Source of the DNA: Spirochaetia bacterium
Lineage (GTDB): Bacteria > Spirochaetota > Spirochaetia > DSM-2461
DNA length: 64,000 bases
Reading direction: 5' to 3'
NCBI GenBank assembly: GCA_963668315.1
Contig: OY764216.1
Location: forward strand, 3,200,001-3,264,000
Shown: in pieces, positions 1 through 15,094 of the stretch
Numbering within the stretch: position 1 is the stretch's first letter
Layout of the letters: each line of letters opens with the position of its first letter
Notes under the pieces: generated by a model
What the model was told of the DNA's origin: nothing
Databases searched by the model: none
What the model saw: only the letters and a program-made list of their open reading frames with translations
Made by a program: the position numbers and the translations under genes

Positions 1-1671
1 CGCCAGTCCGGCAGGTCCGGCTCCGATAACGGCTGATTTCGGTCCAGCCGGCGGCTTGCGGGAAGATAGGCCCTGCCTGTACAATTCAAATCCCTTTTCC
101 AGGGCGATTTTCTTCATTTCCCGAATTTCCACCGGCCCTTCATAATCCCGCCGGGTGCAACGGTACTGGCACTGGTGGGCGCAGATATGGCCGGTGATGA
201 AGGGCAGGGGGTTTTTCTCGTATATCAAAGAAGCCGCCTCGCCGTATTTTCCCGCCGCCGTCAGGGCTATATACTCCGGTATGTCCTGGCCGATGGGACA
301 GGCAACCTGACAGGGGGCCAGAAAGCAGTCGTAAAGCGGAAGGGATCCGCCGGTCTTAACCGGGGTATATCCCCTCGTCCTTTTAGGGAGCCAGCGATTG
401 TCATCTGAGAGGCTTCGCCGGGCCAGCTCTTCCAGGGCATTCACATCGATGGCCTCTCCGTCATAGGGCTCCAGGGTTTCCATGAAGCGGGCCAGTTCGG
501 CCATTCTGCGGTATCCTCCGGGCTTGAGAAAATCCGTGGCCGCCGTTACCGGGGCAATGCCGGTTTTCAGCACCTCTTCCATGGTGAGGCGGTTCAGGCC
601 GCCCGAAAAGGAGATGGGGATCGCACCGGAAAATTCCCGGCTGATCCGGGCGGCCACATTCAGGGACAGTGGATAGAGCAGCCGGCCGGACATATACATC
701 TCATCCCCGGGAAGTATATCCAGTTCGTTAATTGTACCCAGTGTGTTTGTCAGTTTCACTCCGAAAAAGCGGTGATGTTCTTCCGCCAGAGATTTCAGCC
801 GTCTGAGCATGGGAACCGCCTCGTCCCAGGAAAGGTCGCGGGCGAAGGCCTCCGGTGAGAGGCGAATGTATTCATAACCGGATTTCATGATGAGATCCCT
901 GACAAAATCATAGCCCAGCAGGGTCGGATTCAGTTTGACAAAAGTATTGAGTTTCTTCTCGGTGAGCATATAGGAGACAATCTGCTCGATTTCGGCGGGG
1001 GGGCAGCCGTGCATGGTGGAGAGGGTCAGCTGGGAACAGATTTTCGGCGGGATGCGCTCTTCCAGCCCTTCGAGAGAGGAGAACTCCTCATGGCTCTCGA
1101 TGATCCGCTTCAGCTCACCCTTATACTTCAGGAAAAGAGGATGCATGGAAGCGTCTTTCAGAGACTCTATGAAATAATCGATTTTGGGACTTTTTATTCC
1201 TTCCAGGTCGTAACCGACGCTCATATTGAATATGAAGGGGGAGGAATATTCTTTTTTACGGAAAAAGAACGCTTCGAGAAGATGCAGGGTAAACCAGGCC
1301 TTCAGATATTCATCGTAAGCCTTGGGCACGGTAAATTCGCTGGACCACTCCGTATTGAAGCACTCGTCCCGGCAGTCAATGCAGGGTTTGGCAATATCCA
1401 GCGTATCAAGAATCTGCACGGTTTTAAGCTCTATGAAACGGGCGCCGCAAAGGTAGGCTGTTACGATATTCTGGGCCAGCTGAGTATGGGGGCCGGCGGC
1501 CGGTCCGAGAATGGTGACGCAGCTTTCTCCGAAAACCTTATAATGGCTCCCGCTGGTTTTACGGAAAAACTGTTCCTCCTCGACAGCGAAAATCGAATGA
1601 AAACTGCGGTATTCCGTAAAAATCCGGTGGATCAGTTCCGAAAAAGAAAGAGGCCTCATCAGGTCAGACAT
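1..1671 (-). CDS. ygfK: YgfK-family Fe-S flavoprotein oxidoreductase (purine catabolism); 3' end runs off the window
   Basis: Not in the ORF track. Manual translation from ATG at 1671 begins MSDLMRPLSFSELIHRIFTEY and includes DCFLAPCQVACPIGQDIPEY, NPLPFITGHICAHQCQYRCTRRDY and Rossmann VIGAGPAGLA at the window edge; GGGGA SD upstream. Confidence 0.9.
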   Translation of the reverse strand, partial: MSDLMRPLSFSELIHRIFTEYRSFHSIFAVEEEQFFRKTSGSHYKVFGESCVTILGPAAGPHTQLAQNIVTAYLCGARFIELKTVQILDTLDIAKPCIDCRDECFNTEWSSEFTVPKAYDEYLKAWFTLHLLEAFFFRKKEYSSPFIFNMSVGYDLEGIKSPKIDYFIESLKDASMHPLFLKYKGELKRIIESHEEFSSLEGLEERIPPKICSQLTLSTMHGCPPAEIEQIVSYMLTEKKLNTFVKLNPTLLGYDFVRDLIMKSGYEYIRLSPEAFARDLSWDEAVPMLRRLKSLAEEHHRFFGVKLTNTLGTINELDILPGDEMYMSGRLLYPLSLNVAARISREFSGAIPISFSGGLNRLTMEEVLKTGIAPVTAATDFLKPGGYRRMAELARFMETLEPYDGEAIDVNALEELARRSLSDDNRWLPKRTRGYTPVKTGGSLPLYDCFLAPCQVACPIGQDIPEYIALTAAGKYGEAASLIYEKNPLPFITGHICAHQCQYRCTRRDYEGPVEIREMKKIALEKGFELYRQGLSSRKPPAGPKSAVIGAGPAGLA

Positions 1672-1802: not shown

Positions 1803-2999
1803 ATGGAAGAGAAAATATGGGAAATGGCGCAGAAATACAGAGATTATACGGCGGATCTGCTTTCCCAGCTGGTCAGGATTCCTTCCTATAGCGGACAGGA
1901 GAAAAATGTTTGCGAAAGAATTACCGCCCTCTGCGAGGAAGCCGGTTTCGATGAGGTCCGGACGGACAAACTGGGCAATGTCATAGCACGTATCGGATCG
2001 GGGAAAAAAATCCTCGCCTTCGATGCCCATATCGATACGGTGGAAACGGGGGATAAGGGTGCCTGGGAGAAGGATCCCTTCTCGGGGGATGTGGACGATG
2101 TCTATGTCTGGGGGCGGGGGAGCTCCGATCAGAAAGGCGGAGCCGCTTCCATGATTACCGCCGGACGTATTTTAAAGGAACTGGGATACGATAGGAATTT
2201 CACCCTTCTCTTTACCTTTACCGTCATGGAAGAGGATTGCGACGGCCTTTGCTGGAAGTACCTTATTGAGGAAGAGAAGATTCTGCCCAGTTACGCCGTA
2301 TCCACCGAACCGACGAGCTGCCGTCTTTACCGGGGCCACAGAGGACGGATGGAGATGGAAGTGAAGATCAAGGGCGTTTCCAGTCACGGCTCCGCCCCGG
2401 AGCGGGGTGTCAGCGCTGCCTATAAAGCGTCCCGCGCAGCCCTGGCCCTGGAGAAACTGAATGAAAACCTCAAACCCGATGAGGGGAATTTTCTCGGTAA
2501 GGGAACCATTGTCGTTTCCCAGATGGCCGTATCCGGGCCCAGCCAGTGTGCCGTGCCCGATCAGGCCATGCTCTATCTCGACAGACGCCTGACCTGGGGG
2601 GAAGATGCCGATCTGGCTATTTCCCAGGTCAGGGAAGCCATCTTTGAGGCCCTGGGGGAATATCCCGAATCGGTCACCATGCCCCGCTACGAGGAGAGGG
2701 GGTACCGAAATCTGGACTATTTTCAGGAACTTTATTTCCCTACCTGGAAAATCGAAGAGTCCCATCCCCTTGTTCAGGGGGGGGTAAAAGCCTATGAGGC
2801 TCTGTTCCAGAAAAAGCCGGAGGTGGACAAATGGACCTTTTCCACCAATTGCGTAGCCATCTGCGGCCGCCACAAAATACCCTGCATAGGTTTCGGACCG
2901 GGCGACGAGAAGGAAGCCCATGCCCCCAATGAGAAGAACCGGGTAGACGATCTGGTCATCTGCTCCGCCTTTTATGCCTCCCTGGCCTTTTCCCTATAG
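1803..2999 (+). CDS. ygeY: YgeY-family M20 metallohydrolase
   Basis: FDAHIDTV, GRGSSDQKGG, MEEDCDG, YRGHRGRME, WTFSTN, GFGPG..AHAPNE; cluster context. Confidence 0.92.
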   Translation: MEEKIWEMAQKYRDYTADLLSQLVRIPSYSGQEKNVCERITALCEEAGFDEVRTDKLGNVIARIGSGKKILAFDAHIDTVETGDKGAWEKDPFSGDVDDVYVWGRGSSDQKGGAASMITAGRILKELGYDRNFTLLFTFTVMEEDCDGLCWKYLIEEEKILPSYAVSTEPTSCRLYRGHRGRMEMEVKIKGVSSHGSAPERGVSAAYKASRAALALEKLNENLKPDEGNFLGKGTIVVSQMAVSGPSQCAVPDQAMLYLDRRLTWGEDADLAISQVREAIFEALGEYPESVTMPRYEERGYRNLDYFQELYFPTWKIEESHPLVQGGVKAYEALFQKKPEVDKWTFSTNCVAICGRHKIPCIGFGPGDEKEAHAPNEKNRVDDLVICSAFYASLAFSL

Positions 3000-3008
3000 G
3001 AAAATGTT

Positions 3009-3950
3009 ATGGGAAGGCGCATCGTTATTGCCATAGGGGGAAATTCCCTTATCAAGGACGGTCACCATCTGGCCGTGGAAGATCAGTATGAGGCCATTTG
3101 CCGGACGGCCCGTTCCATAGCCCGGATCTGCCGTGAAAATCAGGTCCTGGTAACCCATGGCAACGGTCCCCAGGTCGGGTTTATTCTGCGCCGGTCCGAT
3201 ATCGCCCACGAAAGAGACCATATGCACCGTGTCCCCCTGGTAAGCTGCGACGCCGATACACAGGGGGCTATCGGGTATCAGATTCAGCAGGCCCTGGACA
3301 ATGAATTCCGCACAGAAAATATTCAGAAAAAAGCGGTCACTCTGGTTACCCAGGTGCTGGTGGACCGGGATGATCCGGCCTTTTCCTCGCCGGCCAAGCC
3401 TATCGGCTCATTCTACACGAAGGAGCAGGCCGATATTCTCAGGGCGACAAACACGGACTGGATGATGAAGGAGGATGCCGGCAGGGGGTTCCGGCGGGTG
3501 GTCCCCTCACCCCTTCCCGTGGATATCGTGGAGTTTGACGCGATTAAAACCCTCTATGACCGGGGCTTCATCCTGGTGGCCGCCGGAGGCGGGGGTATCC
3601 CCGTTATCAAAGAAGGTGACCTTCTCCGTGGGGTAGATGCGGTTATCGATAAGGACAGGGCTTCCGCCCTTCTGGCACGTATGCTTGAATCGGATACTCT
3701 GGTAATATCCACCGCGGTGAGACAGGTATCCCTCAACTACGGAACGGAGGAAGAAAAGGCTCTGGGACGGATTGACCGGCTTACCATGAAGGGCTACCTT
3801 AAGGAGGGGCATTTCGCCGAAGGCAGCATGAAGCCGAAAGTCGAGGCCGCCCTGGATTTTCTGGATGGGGGAGGGCGGGAAGTCATCATAACCGATCCTG
3901 AACATCTTGAAGCGGCACTGGAAGACCGTGACGGAACGCGCATAAATTAG
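3009..3950 (+). CDS. arcC: carbamate kinase (YqeA/ArcC)
   Basis: IAIGGNSL, THGNGPQVG, KPIGSFY, RRVVPSP, GGGGIPV, AVIDKD, GSMKPK. Confidence 0.95.
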   Translation: MGRRIVIAIGGNSLIKDGHHLAVEDQYEAICRTARSIARICRENQVLVTHGNGPQVGFILRRSDIAHERDHMHRVPLVSCDADTQGAIGYQIQQALDNEFRTENIQKKAVTLVTQVLVDRDDPAFSSPAKPIGSFYTKEQADILRATNTDWMMKEDAGRGFRRVVPSPLPVDIVEFDAIKTLYDRGFILVAAGGGGIPVIKEGDLLRGVDAVIDKDRASALLARMLESDTLVISTAVRQVSLNYGTEEEKALGRIDRLTMKGYLKEGHFAEGSMKPKVEAALDFLDGGGREVIITDPEHLEAALEDRDGTRIN

Positions 3951-3961
3951 GAGGCAATGGC

Positions 3962-5152
3962 ATGGACAACAAAATGACAAACATGGTGAAAGCTCTGGAG
4001 GGATTGAATACTTCAGCCCTGTTCGGGGATGATTTTTTCCTTACCTGGGACAAGAGCCGGGAAGAGCTGGAAGGGCTTCTGATGACGGCGGAAATACTCA
4101 GGGCCATGCGGGCGGACAATCTTTCTGCCCGGCTTTTCGAAAGCGGTCTGGCTATCTCCCTTTTTCGGGACAACTCCACCAGAACGCGGTTCAGCTTCGC
4201 CAGTGCGGCGAACCTTCTCGGACTGGAAGTGCAGGATCTGGAAGAGGGAAAATCACAGATCGCCCATGGCGAGACTGTCCGTGAAACGGCCAATATGATC
4301 AGTTTTATGGCCGACGTGATCGGTATCAGGGATGACATGTACATCGGCAAGGGGCATACCTATATGGAAGAGGTCTCCCGCGCCGTGAAAAAAGGCTACG
4401 AGGAGGGCGTCCTCCAGCAGAGGCCGACGGTGGTCAACCTGCAGTGCGATATCGACCATCCCACCCAGTCCCTGGCCGATTTTCTCCATCTGGTGAATCA
4501 TTTCGGCGGCATTGAAAACCTCAAAGGAAAGAAAATCGCCATGTCCTGGGCTTACTCTCCCTCCTACGGCAAGCCCCTTTCCGTTCCCCAGGGCGTGGTG
4601 GGGCTGATGACGCGTTTCGGAATGGATGTAACCCTGGCCCATCCCGAAGGTTATGAGATTATGAAGGACGTGGAGGATCTGGCGGCAGGAAACGCCGCCG
4701 CGTCGGGGGGGAGTTTTAAAAAGACCAATTCCATGGAAGAGGCTTTCAGAGGGGCCGATATCGTTTATCCGAAAAGCTGGGCTCCCTACAGGGCCATGGA
4801 AACAAGGACGGATCTTTACGGAAAGGGTGATTTTGACGGCATAAAGGCTCTGGAAAAGGAGCTTCTGGCTCAGAATGCCCGCCATAAGGATTGGACCTGC
4901 TCGGAGAAACTGATGAAAGAGACCAATGATGCCCTCTATCTCCACTGCCTGCCGGCAGACATTACAGGTGTCAGCTGCGAACAGGGAGAAGTGGATGGTT
5001 CCGTTTTCGACAGATTCAGGGAACCGCTCTACAGGGAGGCCGGCTATAAACCCTATATCATCGCCGCCATGATATTTTTGAGTAAAGTCAAGGATCCCGC
5101 CAAAGGGCTCCGTACGCTTATCGACCGGGGAATCTCCCGGATTACACTATAA
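3962..5152 (+). CDS. ygeW: knotted carbamoyltransferase YgeW
   Basis: FRDNSTRTRFS, NLQCDIDHPTQ, WAYSPSYGKPLSVPQG, YLHCLPADI. Confidence 0.95.
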   Translation: MDNKMTNMVKALEGLNTSALFGDDFFLTWDKSREELEGLLMTAEILRAMRADNLSARLFESGLAISLFRDNSTRTRFSFASAANLLGLEVQDLEEGKSQIAHGETVRETANMISFMADVIGIRDDMYIGKGHTYMEEVSRAVKKGYEEGVLQQRPTVVNLQCDIDHPTQSLADFLHLVNHFGGIENLKGKKIAMSWAYSPSYGKPLSVPQGVVGLMTRFGMDVTLAHPEGYEIMKDVEDLAAGNAAASGGSFKKTNSMEEAFRGADIVYPKSWAPYRAMETRTDLYGKGDFDGIKALEKELLAQNARHKDWTCSEKLMKETNDALYLHCLPADITGVSCEQGEVDGSVFDRFREPLYREAGYKPYIIAAMIFLSKVKDPAKGLRTLIDRGISRITL

Positions 5153-5166
5153 ATTAAGGAGTTTTT

Positions 5167-6624
5167 GTGATTGATCTTACGTTAAAAGAGGATGTTAGAA
5201 AGAAAAATATAGAGAGATGCCGGGAGAAGGGCATTCTTCTTCCCACCTTTGCCCAGATGAAAAATCCCGAGACGATTCCCTCTTCCGTGAAGGATAAACT
5301 GCGTCAGACCGGATTATGGGATCTGGACCCGGTCAACCTCTTCCGCATTACCTGGCGGAATGAACCGGTCCCTTCGGGGGGAACCTTCGGCGGGGTGAAT
5401 TATATGGAAATCCCCAAAGAGCTGACCGGAGTAAACGCCCGCATTATCGCTCTGGTGGGAAAATGGTTTCCCACGGGCGCCCATAAGGTGGGGGCTACCT
5501 ACGGCTGTCTCGCCCCGGCTCTGGTTTCGGGCAACTTCGATTCCACCAGCCAGAAGGCCGTCTGGCCCTCCACGGGGAACTACTGCCGGGGAGGAGCCTA
5601 CAACAGCGCCCTCCTGGGCTGCGATTCCATCGCCATCCTTCCCGAGGAAATGAGTCGTGAACGGTTTGAGTGGCTCTCCAAAATCGCCGGCGAGGTTATC
5701 GCGACTCCGGGATGCGAAAGCAATGTCAAGGAAATTTTCGACAAATGCCATGAACTGAATGCGGAACGGGGCGATGACATTGTCATTTTCAATCAATTCG
5801 ATCAGTTCGGCAATTATCTCTGGCATTATGAGATCACCGGATCTGCCATAGAAGCAGCCTGCGCCGAGCTGGGTGTGAAATCCCTGGCCGGTTATGTCTC
5901 CTCCACCGGATCGGGGGGCACCATCGCCGCGGGTGATTACCTGAAAACCCTCTATCCCCGGATGAAAATCGGGGCGGCCGAAGCCCTGCAGTGTCCCACC
6001 CTTCTCAGAAACGGATTCGGCGGACATCGTATTGAAGGAATCGGCGACAAGCATGTGCCCTGGATTCATAATGTGCGGAATACCGATATGGTCGTCGCCG
6101 TGGATGACGAGGACTGCATCTCCCTCATGAGACTCTACAACGAGGAGGAGGGAATCCGTTTTCTGGAAGCGGCGGGAATGGACAAATCTTTCAGAGAAAA
6201 ACTGCCCTTCCTGGGGATTTCCGGAATCGGCAACCTCATCGCCTCCATAAAAATGGCCAGGTATTACGAAATGGACAGTGACGATGTGATCTTTACCGTC
6301 TGCACCGACTCCATGGATATGTACGATTCCCGTATGAAGGAGTATCATGAAAAATACGGCGCCTTCACCGACAAGGAGGCCCAGAGGGTTTATGCCCGGG
6401 CCGTGGAGGGGCAGAAAATCGACGGGACTCTGGAGCTTAATTATTACGACAGACTCCGTGTGCATAACCTCAAGTACTACACCTGGATAGAACAGCAGGG
6501 TAAGGTTACCGAAGAGCTCAACAGGCAGTGGTATGACAAATCCTACTGGAATGCCGTTCCTCCGAAGGCCGAAGAGATCGACCGGATGATCAGGAAGTTC
6601 AATGAAGAGGTCCAGGCCGGTTAG
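5167..6624 (+). CDS. PLP-dependent fold-type II enzyme (cysteine-synthase-like, extended), function unknown
   Basis: PTGAHKVGA (PLP Lys), PSTGNY, STGSGGT, HRIEGIG. Confidence 0.8.
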   Translation: MIDLTLKEDVRKKNIERCREKGILLPTFAQMKNPETIPSSVKDKLRQTGLWDLDPVNLFRITWRNEPVPSGGTFGGVNYMEIPKELTGVNARIIALVGKWFPTGAHKVGATYGCLAPALVSGNFDSTSQKAVWPSTGNYCRGGAYNSALLGCDSIAILPEEMSRERFEWLSKIAGEVIATPGCESNVKEIFDKCHELNAERGDDIVIFNQFDQFGNYLWHYEITGSAIEAACAELGVKSLAGYVSSTGSGGTIAAGDYLKTLYPRMKIGAAEALQCPTLLRNGFGGHRIEGIGDKHVPWIHNVRNTDMVVAVDDEDCISLMRLYNEEEGIRFLEAAGMDKSFREKLPFLGISGIGNLIASIKMARYYEMDSDDVIFTVCTDSMDMYDSRMKEYHEKYGAFTDKEAQRVYARAVEGQKIDGTLELNYYDRLRVHNLKYYTWIEQQGKVTEELNRQWYDKSYWNAVPPKAEEIDRMIRKFNEEVQAG

Positions 6625-6625
6625 T

Positions 6626-7831
6626 ATGATATTGTATCGCTGCACAACCTGCGGGAAAAGTTATGAAACGGATGATTTGATCTACCGCTGTCCCGAATGC
6701 TCCTCGAAAGGGGTTAAGGACGGTTTTCAGAGGGGAAATCTGCTGGTGGAGTTTGATCCGTCGATTATTGAGGGAAGGACGCTCCCCCTTGATCCCCTCT
6801 CTCTTTTTCCCTATGAGATTGATTTTCACGACTCCTTTCCCGCAGGCGGCACGCCTCTGGTCAGGCCCGGAAGACTAAGGCAGGAGGAGGGTTTTCCCCG
6901 GCTTCTCTGCAAGTGCGAGATGGCCAATCCCTCCGGTTCCTACAAGGACCGGGCCTCCCTTCTGGTGGCGGCCCAGGCGAAGGCGCTCGGCGTTGATAAG
7001 ATCGTTCTGGCCTCCACGGGTAATGCCGGTTCGGCCATGAGCTGCGCCGGCGCCGCCCTGGGGCTGGACGTGGTTCTCTTTGTCCCCGCCACGGCGCCCC
7101 TGGAAAAACTGGCCCAGTCGGTTTTCTACGGCGCCCGGGTCATTCCCGTAAAGGGAACCTATGACAACGCCTTTGCCCTTTCCCTGGAATATTCGGCCCG
7201 TTTCGGAGGGATAAACCGGAACACCGCCTACAATCCCATGACCATAGAGGGCAAGAAAAGCGCCGCCGTTGAGATTATCAATCAGATGGGCGGGGAAGTT
7301 CCCGATCTGGTCTATATTCCCGCGGGCGACGGCGTTATCTACACGGGAATGGTTAAGGGCTTTTCCGATCTGAAAAAGGCGGGGTTCATCGACCGCTTTC
7401 CCCGCTGCGTGGCTGTCCAGCCCCGGGGCAGCAACGCCCTCTACCTGTCGTGGAAGGAGGGCCGGGAAGTCCTCCTGGACAAAACGGATACAAAGGCCGA
7501 TTCCCTGGCTGTCTGTTCTCCCGCCTGCGGTGAACCGGCCCTTCAGTTCATGGAGGCGTCCGAGGGATGGGCCGTGGAAGTGTCCGACGGCGAGATTGGC
7601 GATGCTCAGGAAAAGCTGGCCGCCGGGGCGGGGCTTTTTGTCGAGCCCTCCTCCGCCGCGGCTCTGGCCGGTATGAGAAAGGACAGAAAGGAAGGAAGGA
7701 TTTCCGGTAAGGAAACAGCGGTGCTGCTGCTCACCGGAACGGGTCATAAGGATATGAAGGCCGTTATCGACCGGATCTCTCTGCCCGAGCCGGTGGAATG
7801 TACTCTCGATGAGGTGATGAAGCATGTATGA
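6626..7831 (+). CDS. threonine-synthase-like PLP enzyme with N-terminal Zn ribbon
   Basis: CTTCG/CPEC, NPSGSYKDR, ASTGNAG, EGKKS, EPSSAA, LTGTGHKD; ATG 6626 directly after the upstream stop preferred over the track start 6602. Confidence 0.8.
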   Translation: MILYRCTTCGKSYETDDLIYRCPECSSKGVKDGFQRGNLLVEFDPSIIEGRTLPLDPLSLFPYEIDFHDSFPAGGTPLVRPGRLRQEEGFPRLLCKCEMANPSGSYKDRASLLVAAQAKALGVDKIVLASTGNAGSAMSCAGAALGLDVVLFVPATAPLEKLAQSVFYGARVIPVKGTYDNAFALSLEYSARFGGINRNTAYNPMTIEGKKSAAVEIINQMGGEVPDLVYIPAGDGVIYTGMVKGFSDLKKAGFIDRFPRCVAVQPRGSNALYLSWKEGREVLLDKTDTKADSLAVCSPACGEPALQFMEASEGWAVEVSDGEIGDAQEKLAAGAGLFVEPSSAAALAGMRKDRKEGRISGKETAVLLLTGTGHKDMKAVIDRISLPEPVECTLDEVMKHV

Positions 7832-9143
7832 TTTAGCTGTCAAAAACGGTCTTGTTTACCGGAACGGCCGGTTGGAAGAGGCCCACGTCTATATTAAGGA
7901 CGGTATCATTGAGGAAATTTCCTCCCGGGAGTTTGGGGCAAAGGAGACACTTGAAGGGGAGGGGAAAAAAATATTTCCCGGTCTTATCGATCCCCATGTC
8001 CATTTCGCCCTCTCCGTGGGGAACTTCCGTTCCGCCGATGATTTCGCCAGCGGTTCCGCCGCGGGTCTTTTCGGTGGGGTGACAACCTATATTGACTTTC
8101 TCGATCCGGTAAATAGGGGCTCCCTCGTGGAGGAGGCTTTCGAGCGGAGAAAAGCCCTGGCCGCGAAAAGCTGTTCCGATTACTCCTTTCATACCTGTGC
8201 GGCAAACCCCGAGGGGCAGACCGAAGGAATTACCGAAGAATCCCTGCGCCTGAAAATGCCTTCCATAAAGGTTTTTACGGCCTATTCCGAAACGGACAGA
8301 CGAACCTATGAGAAGGAGCTGGCCGAATTTCTGGCCCTGTCCGAGAAAAGGGGAACCGTGCTCCTGGTTCATGGAGAGGATGAGGATCATATCGTCAGCG
8401 ATCCGCGGTTCGGACCGGAGGATCTGACTTTCAGCCGACCCCGAAAATCGGAACGGTCCATGGTGGAGAAACTGTGCTCCCTTGTCGAAGAGAAAAGGGG
8501 CCGCCTCTATCTTGTTCATACCACCTGCGGAAGCTCCGTGGAATATGCCAGGGAAAGGCTGGGGGATCTTTTCGGGAAAAATCTTTTCATGGAGAGCTGC
8601 CCCCAGTATTTCTTCCTCACCGAGGAGGATCTCAAGGGGGACGAGGGGTATAAGTACGTCCTGGCTCCCCCTCTCCGTTCTCTCAAGGAGACAAAGAAGA
8701 TCACCGAAGAGGCTTCCCGTCTCTTTTCCATAGGGACCGACCACTGCCCCTTTATGCTGGCGGAAAAGAAACGGTCCCTCCTGAGCCGGATTCCCTTCGG
8801 AATCGGGGGCATAGAGTACTCTTTTCCCCTTATGTACGGTCTTTTCAAAGAGAGCATTGTCGATAAAATGACCGTCAATCCGGCCCGTTTATTCGGTTTA
8901 TACCCCCGCAAAGGGGTTCTGGAACCCGGTTCCGACGGAGATTTGTTTCTTTTTCACGAAGAAGGGAGTACAATAGTAGGAACGGGACATTCCCGGTGCG
9001 ACTACAATGTTTATGAGAATTTTCCCGTGGGCGGCCGTGTGGAGAAGACCGTTCTGAGAGGAAAAGTCGTCATGGACGGGAGAAACGTGATCCCGGAGGA
9101 AGGACGTTTTCTGGAAAGGGAGGCAGGCATTGAAAGCCATTAG
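7824..9143 (+). CDS. cyclic amidohydrolase (dihydropyrimidinase/HyuA-like)
   Basis: PGLIDPHVH, GGVTT, ESCPQY, APPLR, GTDHCPF, NPARLFGLYPRKG. Confidence 0.85.
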   Translation: MYDLAVKNGLVYRNGRLEEAHVYIKDGIIEEISSREFGAKETLEGEGKKIFPGLIDPHVHFALSVGNFRSADDFASGSAAGLFGGVTTYIDFLDPVNRGSLVEEAFERRKALAAKSCSDYSFHTCAANPEGQTEGITEESLRLKMPSIKVFTAYSETDRRTYEKELAEFLALSEKRGTVLLVHGEDEDHIVSDPRFGPEDLTFSRPRKSERSMVEKLCSLVEEKRGRLYLVHTTCGSSVEYARERLGDLFGKNLFMESCPQYFFLTEEDLKGDEGYKYVLAPPLRSLKETKKITEEASRLFSIGTDHCPFMLAEKKRSLLSRIPFGIGGIEYSFPLMYGLFKESIVDKMTVNPARLFGLYPRKGVLEPGSDGDLFLFHEEGSTIVGTGHSRCDYNVYENFPVGGRVEKTVLRGKVVMDGRNVIPEEGRFLEREAGIESH

Positions 9144-10449
9144 CAATGTTCGAATTTATGATTTTATCCATTATCAGGCCCGGGGCTATGTCGTTTTCGA
9201 TGAAACCATAGCCGAGACGGGACCGATGGAGGGATTCGATGAGGCGCGACGTAAATACGGCCTTTCCGACGGGGATATCACCGACGGCAGGAACAGGCTG
9301 CTCATTCCCGGACTGGTGCTGGGGCATACCCATATCTATTCCACCTTTGCCCGCGGGATGGCCCTGCCTTTCAATCCGCAGAACTTTCAGGAGATACTGG
9401 AACAGCAGTGGTGGAAGATGGATGCCGCCCTGGACAGGGAAGAGATTTATTACAGCGGTCTTGTCAGCGGCCTCGGCTATATCAAGCACGGAGTGACCAC
9501 CATTATCGATCACCATGCCAGCGGGCGGGATATAAGGGGCACTCTCAACGAGCTGAAGAGAAGCGTGGTGGACGAGATGGGGCTTCGCGGCATGTTCTGC
9601 TTTGAAACATCCGACCGTTTCGACCGGGAGGCCTGCATCGAGGAAAATGTGGATTTCCGCGACCAGGAGGAGGAGGGATTATGCGCCTCCCACTTCGGTA
9701 TGCATGCTTCCATGACCCTATCCGACGATACTCTGGTGAAAATCTCCCGCCGTCTGGAAGGACGTCCTGTTCATATTCATGTGGCCGAAAGCCGGATGGA
9801 TCAGGAGGACTGCATGAGCCGTTACGCCATGGGACTGGTAGAGCGGCTCGATAAATTCGGCCTTCTCAACAAGGACAGCATCCTGGTACACGGTATTTAC
9901 CTGAGTGAAAAAGAGATGGATCTCATCGCCGAGCGGGAGTGCTATGTCGCCCTGAATCCCCTTTCCAATATGAATAACGGAGTGGGGCTGCCCGATTACC
10001 CCCTTCTGAAAAAGCACGGAATCCCCTGTATCATCGGCAATGACGGCCTGGGAACTTCGGTGGCCAACGAATGGCAGGCCCTGCTCTTTTCCACCCATTA
10101 CAAGTACAGGGATCCCATGGCGTTCGATCTGGGGGATCTGCACCGGATGATTCTCAACAGTTACGAATACGCCTCCCGGATGCTCAAAACCGATCTGGGT
10201 AGGATTAAAAAAGGCTATGAAGCGGATATGATCCTCATTGACGAGGATAATCCCACCCCCATGGGAGACGGCAACGCCCTGGGACATCTGCTCTACGGCA
10301 GCGCCGCCGCCTTGAGGCCTTCCCATACCTGGTGCCGGGGAAAGCTGAAGATGGCCGATTACCTCTATACAGAAGATGTTTCCTCTATTTATGAGAAAAG
10401 CCGTGAACAGGCCGCCCGCCTCTGGAATGACCTGGGAGCTCCCCTGTGA
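9130..10449 (+). CDS. ssnA: SsnA-family amidohydrolase
   Basis: HTHIYSTFARG, GVTTIIDHHAS, GMHASMTLS, HIHVAE, NPLSNMNNGVG. Confidence 0.85.
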   Translation: MKAISNVRIYDFIHYQARGYVVFDETIAETGPMEGFDEARRKYGLSDGDITDGRNRLLIPGLVLGHTHIYSTFARGMALPFNPQNFQEILEQQWWKMDAALDREEIYYSGLVSGLGYIKHGVTTIIDHHASGRDIRGTLNELKRSVVDEMGLRGMFCFETSDRFDREACIEENVDFRDQEEEGLCASHFGMHASMTLSDDTLVKISRRLEGRPVHIHVAESRMDQEDCMSRYAMGLVERLDKFGLLNKDSILVHGIYLSEKEMDLIAERECYVALNPLSNMNNGVGLPDYPLLKKHGIPCIIGNDGLGTSVANEWQALLFSTHYKYRDPMAFDLGDLHRMILNSYEYASRMLKTDLGRIKKGYEADMILIDEDNPTPMGDGNALGHLLYGSAAALRPSHTWCRGKLKMADYLYTEDVSSIYEKSREQAARLWNDLGAPL

Positions 10450-12548
10450 GACGGGATATCAGTGAAAGCATCAACAAAGTTGATAACGGGGAAAAAATAG
10501 GCGGATCCGGCCTCTATCTCAACGATATCGATTTTAAGGATTTCTATTACGCCCTGACTTTGCGGTCCGCTGTCTGCAGGGGACGGATTAAGAACATCCG
10601 ATTTCCCGAGGAAAGGGAAGATGTTTTCATTGTCGATCACCGGGATATCCCCGGGAACAATTATGTACAGATCCTTGAGAAGGACTGGCCCGTTTTTACC
10701 GACGGCCCGGTCAGTTATCTCGGTGAACCGATACTTCTTGTCACAGGCCCGGACAAAGCCGTACTGGAAGATTATCTTGGCCGTATAGAAGTGGAATATG
10801 AAGAGGAGGAGCCCATTCTGACTCTGGAGGATTCCGTCGCAAAGACCGACCCCGTGGTTAGCTATAAAATCGACCGGTGGGACGGGGAAAAACTCGCCGG
10901 GCCCGATATCCGTTTCTACGGCGAGACCTTTTCCACGGGCCGCCAGGAGCAGGTGTACATTGAGCCCCAGGGCGTAGCGGCGGAGTTCACCGGCGGCGGA
11001 GTGAAGCTTACCGGCTCCTATCAGTGCCCCTATTATGTGAAGAACGCCGTTATGAATACCCTGGGCTGGGGACCGGAAAAAGTCCGCGTCGTTCAGGCCG
11101 TGACCGGCGGCGCCTTCGGGGGAAAAGAGGAGTTTCCTTCCCTCATAAGCTGCCAGGTTGCTGTGGCCTGTGTGAAGCTGAAGAAAACGATCAAGCTGGT
11201 TTACGACCGGTCAGAGGACATGGCGGTGACAACCAAACGCCATCCGGCCCTCATCGAATATCAGGCTGCCCTGGATAAAAACAACAGCATCGTCGGCATC
11301 AAGATGGACGTGAAACTGGACGGGGGAGCCACGTCAGGGCTTTCATCGGTCGTTCTTCAGAGATCCATGATCGCCTCCTGCGGGGTCTATACCTTTGAGA
11401 GCGTTCTTGTCACGGGCGGGGTCTATCTGACCAACACGGTTCCCAACGGGGCTTTCCGGGGATTTGGAGCGCCTCAGACATTCTTCGCCCTGGAAACGTT
11501 TATGACCCATCTGGCCGGACATCTGGGAATAGACCCTCTGGATTTCCGTCTGAAATATCTGGCACGCCAGGGGGACCCCACTTCTACGGGGGGACTCTAC
11601 CGCGATCCCATTCTTATGGAAGATATGCTCCGGAATGTGCTGGAACGTTCAGGCTACCGGGAGAAAGCGAAGCTCTATGGCGATCCTTCCGATTCCCGGG
11701 GTATCGGAATCTCCTTCTTCCTCCATGGCTGCGGTTTTACCGGCAGCGGCGAAGCGGACCATATCAAGGCCAAGGTCTTCCTGAAAAGGGATGATCAGGG
11801 CCGCGTGTATATCCTTGTTTCCAATGTGGATATGGGCCAGGGGTTCAAGACGACCATGATCAAGGTCGTGGCCCATACGCTGGGACTGCCCCTGGACCAG
11901 GTCGTTTTTGAGAATCCCGATACGGAATACGTTCCCGATTCCGGGCCGACCGTGGCTTCCCGCTCCACTATGATCGTGGGAAGGCTGCTTGTGGAGGCCT
12001 GCGGAAAACTGGAATCCCGCACGGGGGCCTGTACCGTCGAGGCAAACTACTCCCAGCCGGATTATATCAAGTGGAATCTGGACCGGATGGAAGGAGATGC
12101 CTACCCGGCCTACTCATGGGGAATCAATGTCATCGAGGTGGATACGGACCGGGATACTCTGGAAACGAGGGTGACCGGAGCCTGGACGGTGCATGATGTG
12201 GGAAAGGCGATCGACGACAGGATCCTCAAGGGGCAGGTGGACGGCGGACTTCTCCAGGGCGTGGGATACGGCCTGTGGGAGAAAATGGAAGTGAAGGACG
12301 GGAAGGTGCAGCAGAGCACGGTGACCGATTACATCATTGGCACGGCCTCCGATTTTGTTCCGGTGGATAATGTACTCTTTGACAATCCCTACGCTCTGGG
12401 CCCCTTCGGTGCCAAGGGGGCGGGCGAACTGACCCTGATAGGCGGGGCGCCCGCCGCTGCCATGGCGGTGGAACAGGCGGCGGATGTGAAGATCAACCGG
12501 ATACCCGTGGTGCCCGAATATCTGATGGAGCTCAAGAGACATGGATAA
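10446..12548 (+). CDS. xanthine dehydrogenase family molybdopterin-binding subunit
   Basis: GGAFGGKEE, AFRGFGAPQ, DMGQG, DSGPTVASRST, AKGAGE. Confidence 0.92.
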   Translation: MRRDISESINKVDNGEKIGGSGLYLNDIDFKDFYYALTLRSAVCRGRIKNIRFPEEREDVFIVDHRDIPGNNYVQILEKDWPVFTDGPVSYLGEPILLVTGPDKAVLEDYLGRIEVEYEEEEPILTLEDSVAKTDPVVSYKIDRWDGEKLAGPDIRFYGETFSTGRQEQVYIEPQGVAAEFTGGGVKLTGSYQCPYYVKNAVMNTLGWGPEKVRVVQAVTGGAFGGKEEFPSLISCQVAVACVKLKKTIKLVYDRSEDMAVTTKRHPALIEYQAALDKNNSIVGIKMDVKLDGGATSGLSSVVLQRSMIASCGVYTFESVLVTGGVYLTNTVPNGAFRGFGAPQTFFALETFMTHLAGHLGIDPLDFRLKYLARQGDPTSTGGLYRDPILMEDMLRNVLERSGYREKAKLYGDPSDSRGIGISFFLHGCGFTGSGEADHIKAKVFLKRDDQGRVYILVSNVDMGQGFKTTMIKVVAHTLGLPLDQVVFENPDTEYVPDSGPTVASRSTMIVGRLLVEACGKLESRTGACTVEANYSQPDYIKWNLDRMEGDAYPAYSWGINVIEVDTDRDTLETRVTGAWTVHDVGKAIDDRILKGQVDGGLLQGVGYGLWEKMEVKDGKVQQSTVTDYIIGTASDFVPVDNVLFDNPYALGPFGAKGAGELTLIGGAPAAAMAVEQAADVKINRIPVVPEYLMELKRHG

Positions 12549-13014
12549 GATAATCTTCAACCTTAACGGCAAATCGGTCAGCATAGAAAAGGACGGGTCC
12601 GCCCGGCTGCTTGATACGCTGAGAGATGACTTTTCCCTGACCGGTCCCAAGGAGGGATGCGGGGAAGGGGAGTGCGGAGCCTGCGCCGTCCTCATAGACG
12701 GGGTCATCGCCAATTCCTGTATCGTTCCCCTGGGAAATGTGGCGGGCAGGAATGTGGTCACCATTGAAGGTTTCTCCCGGACGGAACGATTCAAAGTCCT
12801 TGAAGCCAGTTTTGCCGAGTGCGGTGCCGTGCAGTGCGGTTTCTGCACGCCGGGAATGATGATCGCCGCCGAATCCCTCCTGAACGGCAACCCCTATCCC
12901 AACGATGAGGAGATCCGGGAGGGCATTTCCGGCAATCTCTGCCGCTGCACCGGCTACAATATGATCGTCGATGCGGTCAGGCTGGCCTCGGAAAAGGGGA
13001 AGGGCTTATGGTAA
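12541..13014 (+). CDS. xanthine dehydrogenase 2x[2Fe-2S] subunit
   Basis: GCGEGECGAC, QCGFCTPG, GNLCRCTGY. Confidence 0.95.
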   Translation: MDKIIFNLNGKSVSIEKDGSARLLDTLRDDFSLTGPKEGCGEGECGACAVLIDGVIANSCIVPLGNVAGRNVVTIEGFSRTERFKVLEASFAECGAVQCGFCTPGMMIAAESLLNGNPYPNDEEIREGISGNLCRCTGYNMIVDAVRLASEKGKGLW

Positions 13015-13844
13015 ACGCGTATCCCCGCAGTCTGAAGGAAGCCTTGGAGATGCGTTCCGAAGGGTTTCGCCCCATGGGAGGCGGTACGGACCTGATGGTG
13101 CGTTACCGAAACCGATCGGGTCTTCTGCCCCGGTTTGACCAGCCTCTGCTTTTTTTAAGGAATCTGGAGGAGCTTAAAACCCTGGAAGAGAGGGATGGTT
13201 TTCTTCGTATCGGAGCCGCCGTTACCCTGAGGGAACTGCTGGCCTCGCCCCTGACTCCCGGGCCACTCAAGGATATCTTCCTGAAAATGGCATCCTACGC
13301 TATACGGAGTGAAGCCACTCTGGCGGGAAACATAGGCAATGCGTCCCCCGCCGCGGACAGCCTTCCCTTCCTCTATTGCCGGGACAGTTCCCTGACTCTG
13401 GCCAGCCGCCGGGCAGAACGAACCGTATCTCTGGCGGATTTTATCACCGGACCGGGGAAAACTCTTCTGGGCGGGGACGAAATCATCAGGGATATTGTTA
13501 TTCCCCTGAAAACGAGCGATATCTCCTTTCATAAAAAAGTGGGGGGACGCCGTTCGGACGCTATTTCCAAGCTCTCCTTTTATGGGGAGGTCTACCGGGG
13601 AAGCGGGGGCGTGGAAGATGTGCGCCTGGCCTTCGGTTCCGTCGCCCCCCGGGTTGTCCGTCTTCCCGAAGGGGAAGACATGATTCTGAAAGCTCTTGCC
13701 GGAAAAAAAGAATGGGGCCCTGTTGTCGAATTTTACGGTAAGGCCGTCACCCCTATTGACGATCAGCGCTCCACCGCCCATTATCGTAAAGAAGTTTCCC
13801 TGAATCTCTTAAATCGTTTTTTGGAGCTGCTCACTCAATTATGA
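13008..13844 (+). CDS. xanthine dehydrogenase FAD-binding subunit
   Basis: GGGTDLM, ATLAGNIGNASPAADS, PIDDQRSTAHYR. Confidence 0.92.
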   Translation: MVNAYPRSLKEALEMRSEGFRPMGGGTDLMVRYRNRSGLLPRFDQPLLFLRNLEELKTLEERDGFLRIGAAVTLRELLASPLTPGPLKDIFLKMASYAIRSEATLAGNIGNASPAADSLPFLYCRDSSLTLASRRAERTVSLADFITGPGKTLLGGDEIIRDIVIPLKTSDISFHKKVGGRRSDAISKLSFYGEVYRGSGGVEDVRLAFGSVAPRVVRLPEGEDMILKALAGKKEWGPVVEFYGKAVTPIDDQRSTAHYRKEVSLNLLNRFLELLTQL

Positions 13845-15094
13845 CAATTGTAATAAAAGGAAATTTTATCGATACCCCCTCGCCGGAGAAATTCCGGGTC
13901 AGAGAAGAGGGTTATCTTGTTATCGAAAAGGGAAAAGTCCGCGGATACCGCGACACACCGCCCCGGGATACGGGGGAGGGGCAATTTTTCGATTACGGTG
14001 ATAAACTGATTATACCCTCTTTCTGTGATATGCACCTTCACGGACCCCAGTTTCTGCAGAGGGGCCTGGGGATGGATCGGGAGCTTATCGGCTGGCTGAA
14101 TGACTATACCTTTCCCCGGGAAGCCCGTTACGGCGATCCTGCCTACGCCCGGGATGCCTATGAGGTCTTCGCCGATTCTCTCTATCAGGCCGGATCTCTC
14201 CGTTCCTGCGTGTTCGGGACGGTCCATCGGAAGGGGACGGTTATTCTAGCCGAGGAGATGGAAAAGAGGGGGCTGGCCGCCTGCGTGGGCAAGGTGAACA
14301 TGGACAGCAATGCCCCCGATTATATCCGGGAGACGGGGGAGGAATCCCTGAGGGAAACGGTAAAATTTCTTGATGATATGGCCGGATTTTCCCGCATAAT
14401 GCCCATTATCACACCGCGCTTCGTCCCCAGCTGCAGCGGGGAGCTTCTCGGAAAGCTGGGTGATCTGGCAAAGGAAAGAGATCTGCCCGTTCAGTCCCAT
14501 CTGTGCGAAACCGTCCAGGAAGTGGCCTGGGTTAAGGAACTTTTTCCCGAGGGTGAAAGCTACAGCCATGTTTATGATAAAGCCGGCCTTTTAAGAGAGG
14601 GAAAGACTCTTATGGCCCACGGTATCTATATGAGCGAGGACGATCTGGATAGGATTAAAAGGACAGGCACGGCTCTGGTTCACTGTCCCGATTCCAATCT
14701 GAATCTGGCCAGCGGCATTATGGATACCTCCGGCCTTATGGACGGCGGGATAAACCTGGCCCTGGGTTCCGATGTGGGGGGGGGCCATGAGCTCCCCATG
14801 AACCGGGTGATTATCAGCGCCGTTCAGTCCTCCAAAACCCGCAGGCATTTTCTCGGACGCGGCAGAGAACTCTCCCATGAGGAAGCCTTCTACCTGGCCA
14901 CGAGGGGAGGTCTCAGCATCTGGGACAATACGGGCTGCTTTGACGAGGGCTGTCTCTTTGACGCCCTTGTTATTGACGACAGGATGCCCCATCGCGAGGA
15001 GCTGACCCTGACCGACCGTCTTTACCGTTATCTTTACACCTCTTCTGGAGGAGATCAGATAACAGCCCGGTTTCTTGAGGGACGGCGGATCTAA
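13841..15094 (+). CDS. guaD: guanine deaminase
   Basis: DMHLHGPQ, WLNDYTFPRE, ITPRFVPSC, QSHLCE, HCPDSN, LGSDVGGG. Confidence 0.92.
   Translation: MTIVIKGNFIDTPSPEKFRVREEGYLVIEKGKVRGYRDTPPRDTGEGQFFDYGDKLIIPSFCDMHLHGPQFLQRGLGMDRELIGWLNDYTFPREARYGDPAYARDAYEVFADSLYQAGSLRSCVFGTVHRKGTVILAEEMEKRGLAACVGKVNMDSNAPDYIRETGEESLRETVKFLDDMAGFSRIMPIITPRFVPSCSGELLGKLGDLAKERDLPVQSHLCETVQEVAWVKELFPEGESYSHVYDKAGLLREGKTLMAHGIYMSEDDLDRIKRTGTALVHCPDSNLNLASGIMDTSGLMDGGINLALGSDVGGGHELPMNRVIISAVQSSKTRRHFLGRGRELSHEEAFYLATRGGLSIWDNTGCFDEGCLFDALVIDDRMPHREELTLTDRLYRYLYTSSGGDQITARFLEGRRI

Follow-up and report, generated by a model that had tools for sequence, protein, structure and literature searches.

Two pyridoxal phosphate enzymes in the position of ygeX: a probable variant ending of the reductive purine pathway

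Two PLP enzyme genes in a spirochaetal purine cluster

The stretch of DNA analysed here (the window) comprises 64,000 nucleotides of a Spirochaetia bacterium (assembly GCA_963668315.1, contig OY764216.1, positions 3,200,001 to 3,264,000) whose genome is a single contig of 5.6 Mb. Within a cluster of purine genes it carries two adjacent genes for fold-type II enzymes dependent on pyridoxal 5'-phosphate (PLP): PLP-A (5167..6624, plus strand; gene coordinates are window positions), encoding a 485-residue enzyme with the CysK fold, and PLP-B (6626..7831, plus strand), encoding a 401-residue enzyme with the ThrC fold. The module they form is likely to substitute for YgeX, the diaminopropionate ammonia-lyase, at the final C3 step of the reductive (2,8-dioxopurine) purine pathway. 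The original prediction, made from the sequence alone, had placed two PLP enzymes immediately after ygeW and had seen no ygeX in the window. Both points were confirmed: the two open reading frames match Pfam PALP (PLP-A, 65.5 bits; PLP-B, 241 bits; cut-off, 35) inside the run of purine genes, and the sole strong match of the genome to the YgeX model TIGR03528 (C1:3526225) falls outside the window.

PLP-A and PLP-B are conserved genes and not chance reading frames. PLP-A is matched by every one of at least 8000 candidates that were scored, with identities of 67-100% among the best 120; where named, its close homologues are mostly from Spirochaetales. GC content at third codon positions is 0.66 in PLP-A and 0.69 in PLP-B, compared with 0.61-0.67 in seven neighbouring genes. 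PLP-A starts at GTG 5167, 14 bases after ygeW, and is preceded by an AAGGAG site. For PLP-B the likeliest start is the ATG at 6626, one base past the PLP-A stop, rather than 6602; the 401 residues counted from this ATG equal the length recorded for PLP-B in the protein collection (P0271), and the gene overlaps at its stop with the beginning of the following hyuA-like gene (ATGTATGA, 7824-7831). Promoter and terminator scans returned matches at chance level only (9 vs 8.4 and 18 vs 18.1, respectively).

The two genes belong to a same-strand run with short gaps or overlaps that reads, on the plus strand, ygeY ureido hydrolase of the M20 family (1803..2999; TIGR03526, 486 bits, cut-off 321.5), yqeA-like carbamate kinase (3009..3950; PRK12352, 416 bits, cut-off 266), ygeW knotted carbamoyltransferase (3962..5152; TIGR03316, 721 bits, cut-off 500), PLP-A, PLP-B, a hyuA-like cyclic amidohydrolase (7824..9143; TIGR02033, 252 bits, under the cut-off of 393), an ssnA-like amidohydrolase (9130..10449; best families PRK07203, 365 vs 444, and TIGR03314, 350 vs 455.5, both under cut-off), a three-subunit enzyme of the xanthine dehydrogenase (xdh) family (10446..13844; Pfam MoCoBD, Fer2_2 and FAD_binding_5; Mo subunit 10446-12548, FeS subunit 12541-13014, FAD subunit 13008-13844) and a guanine deaminase-like (guaD-like) gene (13841..15094; TIGR02967, 339 vs cut-off 375). 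Divergent from ygeY, on the minus strand and read from 1671, lies the 5' part of the ygfK reductase gene (1..1671; 1028 residues, the gene extending beyond the window start; TIGR03315, 1328 bits, cut-off 835). In terms of the reductive purine cluster, ygfK, ygeW and ygeY score over their cut-offs, and ssnA, hyuA and xdh are best matches under cut-off.

According to two preprints, urate is broken down in E. coli and Clostridium by a reductive 2,8-dioxopurine pathway that involves xdhD, ygfK/uacX, ssnA, hyuA, ygeW/uacY, yqeA, ygeY and ygeX (bioRxiv 10.1101/2025.04.24.650524, 10.1101/2025.05.19.654654). All upstream gene families of that pathway are present in the cluster of the window, which differs in having no ygeX and, in its stead, two unrelated fold-type II enzymes. 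Since the upstream families are all present, diaminopropionate is probably reached as in the known pathway.

Sequence and predicted structure of PLP-A and PLP-B

PLP-A has the CysK fold (Foldseek template modelling (TM) score, 0.85 on target length). Its predicted structure (mean predicted local distance difference test (pLDDT), 94.8) has a CysK/CBS-like core extended by helical segments of ~75 residues at the N terminus and ~100 at the C terminus, and the best Foldseek matches of the model were O-acetylserine sulfhydrylase and beta-cyanoalanine synthase, at 22-26% identity. The catalytic features of CysK are kept, i.e., the Schiff-base lysine (K107), the STGNY carboxylate loop (135-139), Q210 (QF) and S352 at the PLP ring, and the protein scores well under the cut-off of the CysK model (TIGR01139, 109 bits vs 351) and gives no match to TIGR03528 at E 0.001. 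The substrate-entry loop, which is GIGAG in CysK, reads GIGDKH in PLP-A (HRIEGIGD294KH). In a set of 150 PLP-A sequences that was not picked by the STGNY motif and consists mostly of close matches of the query, D294 and K295 were invariant (150/150), the D294 position being Ala in CysK. PLP-A has many invariant polar residues (Y139, R141, E184, D294, K295 and H296). A search of the ESM Atlas returned only automatically named PALP clusters. Four full-length relatives of PLP-A (P0124, P0148, P0149 and P0172) lack the Lys, the carboxylate loop or the Asp, and relatives with such degraded active-site motifs are possible pseudo-enzymes.

PLP-B is ThrC-like by its predicted structure (pLDDT, 92.2), and its 15 best Foldseek rows are threonine synthases. 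ThrC of the B. subtilis, A. aeolicus and T. thermophilus type is its best match in both sequence and fold (29-33% identity; TM score, ~0.7-0.8), with the FKDR and ASTGN motifs kept and an N-terminal CxxC..CxxC motif present. However, PLP-B scores under the ThrC cut-offs (PRK08197, 214 vs 303; TIGR00260, 148 vs 167) and differs from ThrC in that the GNAGN loop has become GDG, TIATAI has become TxADSI, an extra invariant Arg stands ahead of the NT motif, and the Arg of NPxRxEG is gone. The last was missing from 221/221 PLP-B sequences (T in 181, M in 29, L in 11; 5/221 have an Arg one column later) and present in 5/5 solved ThrC sequences among the matches listed. R204, D241 and D298 are invariant in PLP-B (residue numbers are counted on the translation from 6608). 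We take the NPxRxEG Arg to be the ligand of the substrate phosphate in ThrC, an assumption for which our literature searches found no source, and its loss in PLP-B would fit a lyase whose substrate is a small amino acid without phosphate.

Compared with YgeX/DpaL, the two proteins share the fold type and the position in the cluster. PLP-B scores 23.8 bits on TIGR03528 (cut-off, 532) and is 24% identical to the YgeX of the host genome. The catalytic residues named for YgeX are Lys77 and Asp120 (PMC4000059). The column of Asp120 holds Thr in 299/299 PLP-A sequences (150/150 without those from 160 loci that were picked partly by the STGNY motif of PLP-A) and in 221/221 PLP-B sequences, which read STGN and not TDGN.

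Exchange of PLP-B with YgeX across genomes

The distribution of the three genes was examined first in the phylum of the host, in 301 genomes that were each at least 90% complete. PLP-A occurred in 20/301, plus one genome (G026) in which the gene is split across two contig ends, and PLP-B in 19/301 (orthologue threshold, >210 bits; next match, 179), plus one (G023) found beyond the single-protein search; YgeX was present in 30 and ygeW in 33. Among the ygeW genomes, 25 have YgeX, 22 of them from one family and hence few independent cases, and the remaining 8 all have PLP-B. PLP-B and YgeX occur together in 1/20 PLP-B genomes, namely the host genome only, while the three PLP-A genomes without PLP-B on a profile recheck (G012, G161 and G026) all have YgeX.

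Similar results were obtained outside the phylum. Two collection scans yielded 160 loci around PLP-A relatives among the matches listed (80 + 80), many of them cut by contig ends: at least one other purine-cluster gene was present in 101/160 (56/80 and 45/80), PLP-B in 89/160 (48/80 and 41/80), YgeX in 6/160 (4/80 and 2/80), and YgeX with PLP-B in 0/160. Whole-genome searches covered 50 of 80 genome loci from many phyla, hand-chosen for taxon spread and so as to take in the loci lacking PLP-B, in genomes of unstated completeness (orthologue threshold, at least 470 bits; next match, 318). PLP-B alone accompanied PLP-A in 38 of these genomes, YgeX alone in 6, both in 4 and neither in 2, an exclusion with a Fisher p of 0.0003 that is overstated by kinship. 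Among 200 scored genomes of the Clostridia, the class of G335 (one further genome was unscored), 24 had YgeX, 7 PLP-A and 6 PLP-B; none had PLP-B and YgeX together, and G418 had PLP-A and YgeX without PLP-B. PLP-B is almost always found with PLP-A (18/20 in the own phylum and 5/6 in Clostridia), and two of the three exceptions lie at contig ends.

In a quick tree of 77 PLP-A proteins, the state of YgeX instead of PLP-B required 5 changes, of which at least 4 were forced by well-supported branches. YgeX stands directly after PLP-A in four loci (L105, L108, L109 and L182), and the YgeX proteins from PLP-A loci keep the DGNHG and DTA motifs in 8/8, which rules out that the YgeX beside PLP-A is an L-only variant without Asp120. 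Likewise, ygeY is kept in 5/5 tested genomes with PLP-A and YgeX, ruling out that PLP-A replaces ygeY. PLP-B is thus the gene that exchanges with YgeX, and PLP-A is an extra step that accompanies either in at least 4 lineages. The proposal that one or both genes replace ygeX is supported in part: the pair belongs to the purine cluster and takes the place of ygeX there, but its two genes are not equivalent, the expected anti-correlation with ygeX being seen for PLP-B, whereas PLP-A also occurs beside an intact YgeX.

The host genome itself has an intact ygeX (C1:3526135-3527409), 321 kb from the cluster of the window, so an organism without ygeX is ruled out; co-occurrence of a canonical ygeX with the pair, however, is uncommon in other genomes. 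The ygeX of the host scores over cut-off on NF006058 and TIGR01747 and short of TIGR03528 (484 vs 532), shows an intact TDGN loop in its alignment with E. coli YgeX (E 2e-102), and heads a second, C. difficile-type purine cluster (C1:3526135-3539676) that also holds a YgeY-family hydrolase, two xdh sets, a regulator and a xanthine permease. We read an amidohydrolase of this cluster as UacY-like and a PreA-like gene as UacX-like. Neither ssnA nor hyuA was found in the fetched stretch of the second cluster, which may share these two genes with the cluster of the window.

Several variants of the PLP-A locus were observed. In many clusters a carbamate kinase accompanies two divergent carbamoyltransferases, often with no ygeY in the locus (L018-L020, L028, L029, L057, L063 and L124), suggesting that both ureido groups are phosphorolysed there. 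The Clostridia sample also contained a second, shorter clade of PLP-A (~455 residues; L221 and L223-L225), whose gene stands with PLP-B between xdh and ygeY in three of the genomes. Two relatives on Rhizobium and Bosea plasmids (L291 and L292) neighbour genes for an M20 peptidase, an amino-acid ABC transporter, a TauE exporter and RidA, and the homologues annotated for Aduncisulcus paluster, an anaerobic protist (P0125 and P0405), were possibly acquired from bacteria.

Named records of PLP-A come from Chloroflexota, Spirochaetota, Thermodesulfobacteriota, Synergistota, Thermotogota, Bacillota and others, and the module appears to be the common pathway ending in environmental anaerobes. It is a real, widespread and uncharacterised variant ending of a known pathway, which, according to a commentary, was worked out as late as 2025, in gut bacteria, with its stereochemistry and the order of ureido removal still open (Percudani, PMC12990295). 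We found no paper describing the pair in searches that took in neither supplements nor figures, where a mention is possible, and few subscription journals. Databases call the two genes cysteine synthase and threonine synthase, and any survey based on PF00291 would count them as YgeX. By its legend, the network figure of Li et al. colours YgeX by PF00291; since PLP-A and PLP-B both match this family, clusters with the pair would have counted there as having YgeX.

Serine as a possible intermediate

In the reading that we favour, though with somewhat short of even confidence, PLP-A may convert diaminopropionate into L-serine and PLP-B may deaminate the serine to pyruvate. PLP-A would act by beta-replacement, taking the beta-amino group off 2,3-diaminopropionate and adding water to give L-serine and ammonia (the ureido group of albizziin being a less likely substrate), and PLP-B would be a dehydratase on a threonine synthase scaffold that releases pyruvate and ammonia from serine. 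Where YgeX has displaced PLP-B, PLP-A would operate in parallel, its serine passing to biosynthesis or to an iron-sulfur (Fe-S) serine dehydratase.

Two clues point to serine. The first is a resemblance of PLP-A to Fn1055 of Fusobacterium nucleatum, in which Asp232 activates water. This enzyme forms serine and H2S from cysteine in a beta-replacement reaction, with Asp232 among the residues listed as key (PMC12940168). Residues 236-322 of PLP-A have Fn1055 (PDB 5B53/5B55) as their best solved match, with HRIEGIGD aligned to HRIEGISD, so that both proteins combine the CysK fold with an HRIEGIxD loop. D294 falls opposite chain residue 236 of 5B53, and its equivalence to native Asp232 rests on an inferred four-residue tag offset together with the score of the D232N chain, which is 2 bits lower than wild type against PLP-A 236-322; the PDB title of the D232N structure describes it as bound to the aminoacrylate intermediate. 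PLP-A differs from Fn1055 in length (485 vs ~336 residues), in the KH that follows the Asp, in the YCR that follows the carboxylate loop and in its location in purine clusters.

The second clue is an L-serine dehydratase in one Bacillota lineage (G342 and relatives). Here the order is PLP-A, YgeX and sdaAB-sdaAA, in some cases with a mocA-like gene between YgeX and sdaAB, and xdh or guaD genes lie further along. The sdaAB-sdaAA product is an Fe-S L-serine dehydratase scoring over its family cut-off, and its genes lie inside the purine cluster in 7/8 genomes of this lineage (PLP-B being absent genome-wide in 3/8 and at the level of the locus in the other 5). By comparison, sda was found in 0/112 PLP-B loci and in 0/20 YgeX loci from Clostridia without PLP-A (20 of the 24 YgeX genomes; 10 of the loci are purine clusters). 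Presence anywhere in the genome is not informative: an Fe-S serine dehydratase was present in 4/5 genomes vs 9/14 controls.

Several observations weigh against a serine intermediate. The relationship between PLP-A and Fn1055 is distant (E 9e-15), Fn1055 ranking under ordinary cysteine synthases over the whole length, and the residues after the Asp are Lys-His in PLP-A and Glu-Phe in Fn1055. The serine dehydratase link amounts to one lineage and one evolutionary event; no Sda was found in the fetched stretches of the other three lineages with YgeX and PLP-A, and the G161 genome has no PF03313 match at all. YgeX, the gene that swaps with PLP-B, is a diaminopropionate lyase, which fits PLP-B acting on diaminopropionate at least as well. 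Some PLP-A genes sit away from purine genes, two alphaproteobacterial relatives with 43% identity are in non-purine contexts, and the host genome, with its intact ygeX, does not need the pair for lack of YgeX. CysK- and ThrC-type enzymes are, as far as known, L-specific. The pathway intermediates, in contrast, have been proposed as R/D, a stereochemistry that the commentary leaves open (PMC12990295).

In its fullest form the serine reading makes PLP-A the first enzyme known to form L-serine from 2,3-diaminopropionate, perhaps from the D form and with inversion, and PLP-B a threonine synthase repurposed for the step from serine to pyruvate. Purine carbon would then reach serine and the one-carbon pathways in anaerobes belonging to more than 10 phyla; we regard this as conceivable and leave it as a cautious suggestion. 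If true, the serine intermediate would be new chemistry tying purine catabolism to serine supply, and the question is directly testable with two soluble PLP enzymes and commercial substrates.

An unlikely but coherent alternative is that the two enzymes are parallel lyases, PLP-B or YgeX deaminating diaminopropionate and PLP-A taking the other enantiomer or eliminating urea from albizziin, each yielding pyruvate. This directly fits the swap of PLP-B with YgeX and the retention of PLP-A beside YgeX, and is consistent with the wealth of invariant polar residues in PLP-A and with a distant PLP-A relative near a RidA gene; moreover, the two papers on the pathway differ on which ureido group is the first to be removed, and albizziin may thus arise on a side branch. 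However, ygeY is kept in the tested genomes with PLP-A and YgeX, the urease search of the host genome gave nothing beyond one weak 38-residue match, and this scheme offers no reason for the dependence of PLP-B on PLP-A or for sdaAB. The original prediction had offered this idea by way of example, as separate D- and L-specific lyases or elimination of urea from albizziin; in that form it is possible but not upheld, given the retained ygeY and the two clues to serine.

Similarly improbable is a racemase followed by a lyase, in which PLP-A would convert diaminopropionate or albizziin from D to L and PLP-B would be an L-diaminopropionate ammonia-lyase, replaceable by YgeX, which acts on both enantiomers. 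It would explain why PLP-B nearly always occurs with PLP-A while YgeX occurs with or without it; it agrees with the proposed R configuration of the intermediates and the absence of the Asp120 of YgeX from both enzymes, and D294 of PLP-A could serve as a second base. On the other hand, the YgeX beside PLP-A keeps its Asp120 and DTA motifs, so a racemase looks redundant there, the serine dehydratase in the cluster goes unexplained, and we know of no racemase in the CysK branch. A racemase and lyase acting in sequence do have a precedent, described with a PLP-independent racemase (PMC11193023).

More doubtful still is a role in sulfide supply, with PLP-A an Fn1055-like cysteine (hydroxyl) lyase that feeds the molybdenum enzyme and releases serine as a by-product, and PLP-B alone replacing YgeX. 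The Asp shared with Fn1055 and the frequent position of PLP-A directly after xdh genes (L022, L025-L030, L049 and L090) speak for it. Clusters with ygfK and ssnA are usually associated with selenium use, and the host genome gave no selD match. Nevertheless, no anti-correlation of PLP-A with selenium use was seen (selD in 24/40 PLP-A genomes and no match in 16/40), canonical ygeX clusters hold xdh without PLP-A (22/22 ygeW genomes of family f24), and a flux at cofactor level would hardly need a serine dehydratase. Finally, that these are ordinary cysteine synthase and threonine synthase genes sitting in the cluster by chance, as their database names and folds might suggest, is ruled out for practical purposes by scores under both family cut-offs (far under for PLP-A), altered diagnostic motifs in both genes, a purine-cluster link kept across many phyla, and true cysK (two) and thrC genes elsewhere in the host genome.

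The host genome has ten PALP genes, PLP-A and PLP-B included. Those scoring over their own cut-offs are two CysK (468 and 438 on TIGR01139), TrpB, a cysteate synthase, a PRK06381 protein, ThrC (293 on TIGR00260) and threonine ammonia-lyase; the cysteate synthase (TIGR03844) lies at C1:1026911-1028191. The tenth is the ygeX of the second purine cluster. One of the two stretches covering the second purine cluster (L016) carries at 4827-9933 a run that, from labels assigned by eye, we take to be of polyamine type, with an arginine decarboxylase and saccharopine-dehydrogenase-like, carboxynorspermidine-decarboxylase-like and agmatinase-like genes.

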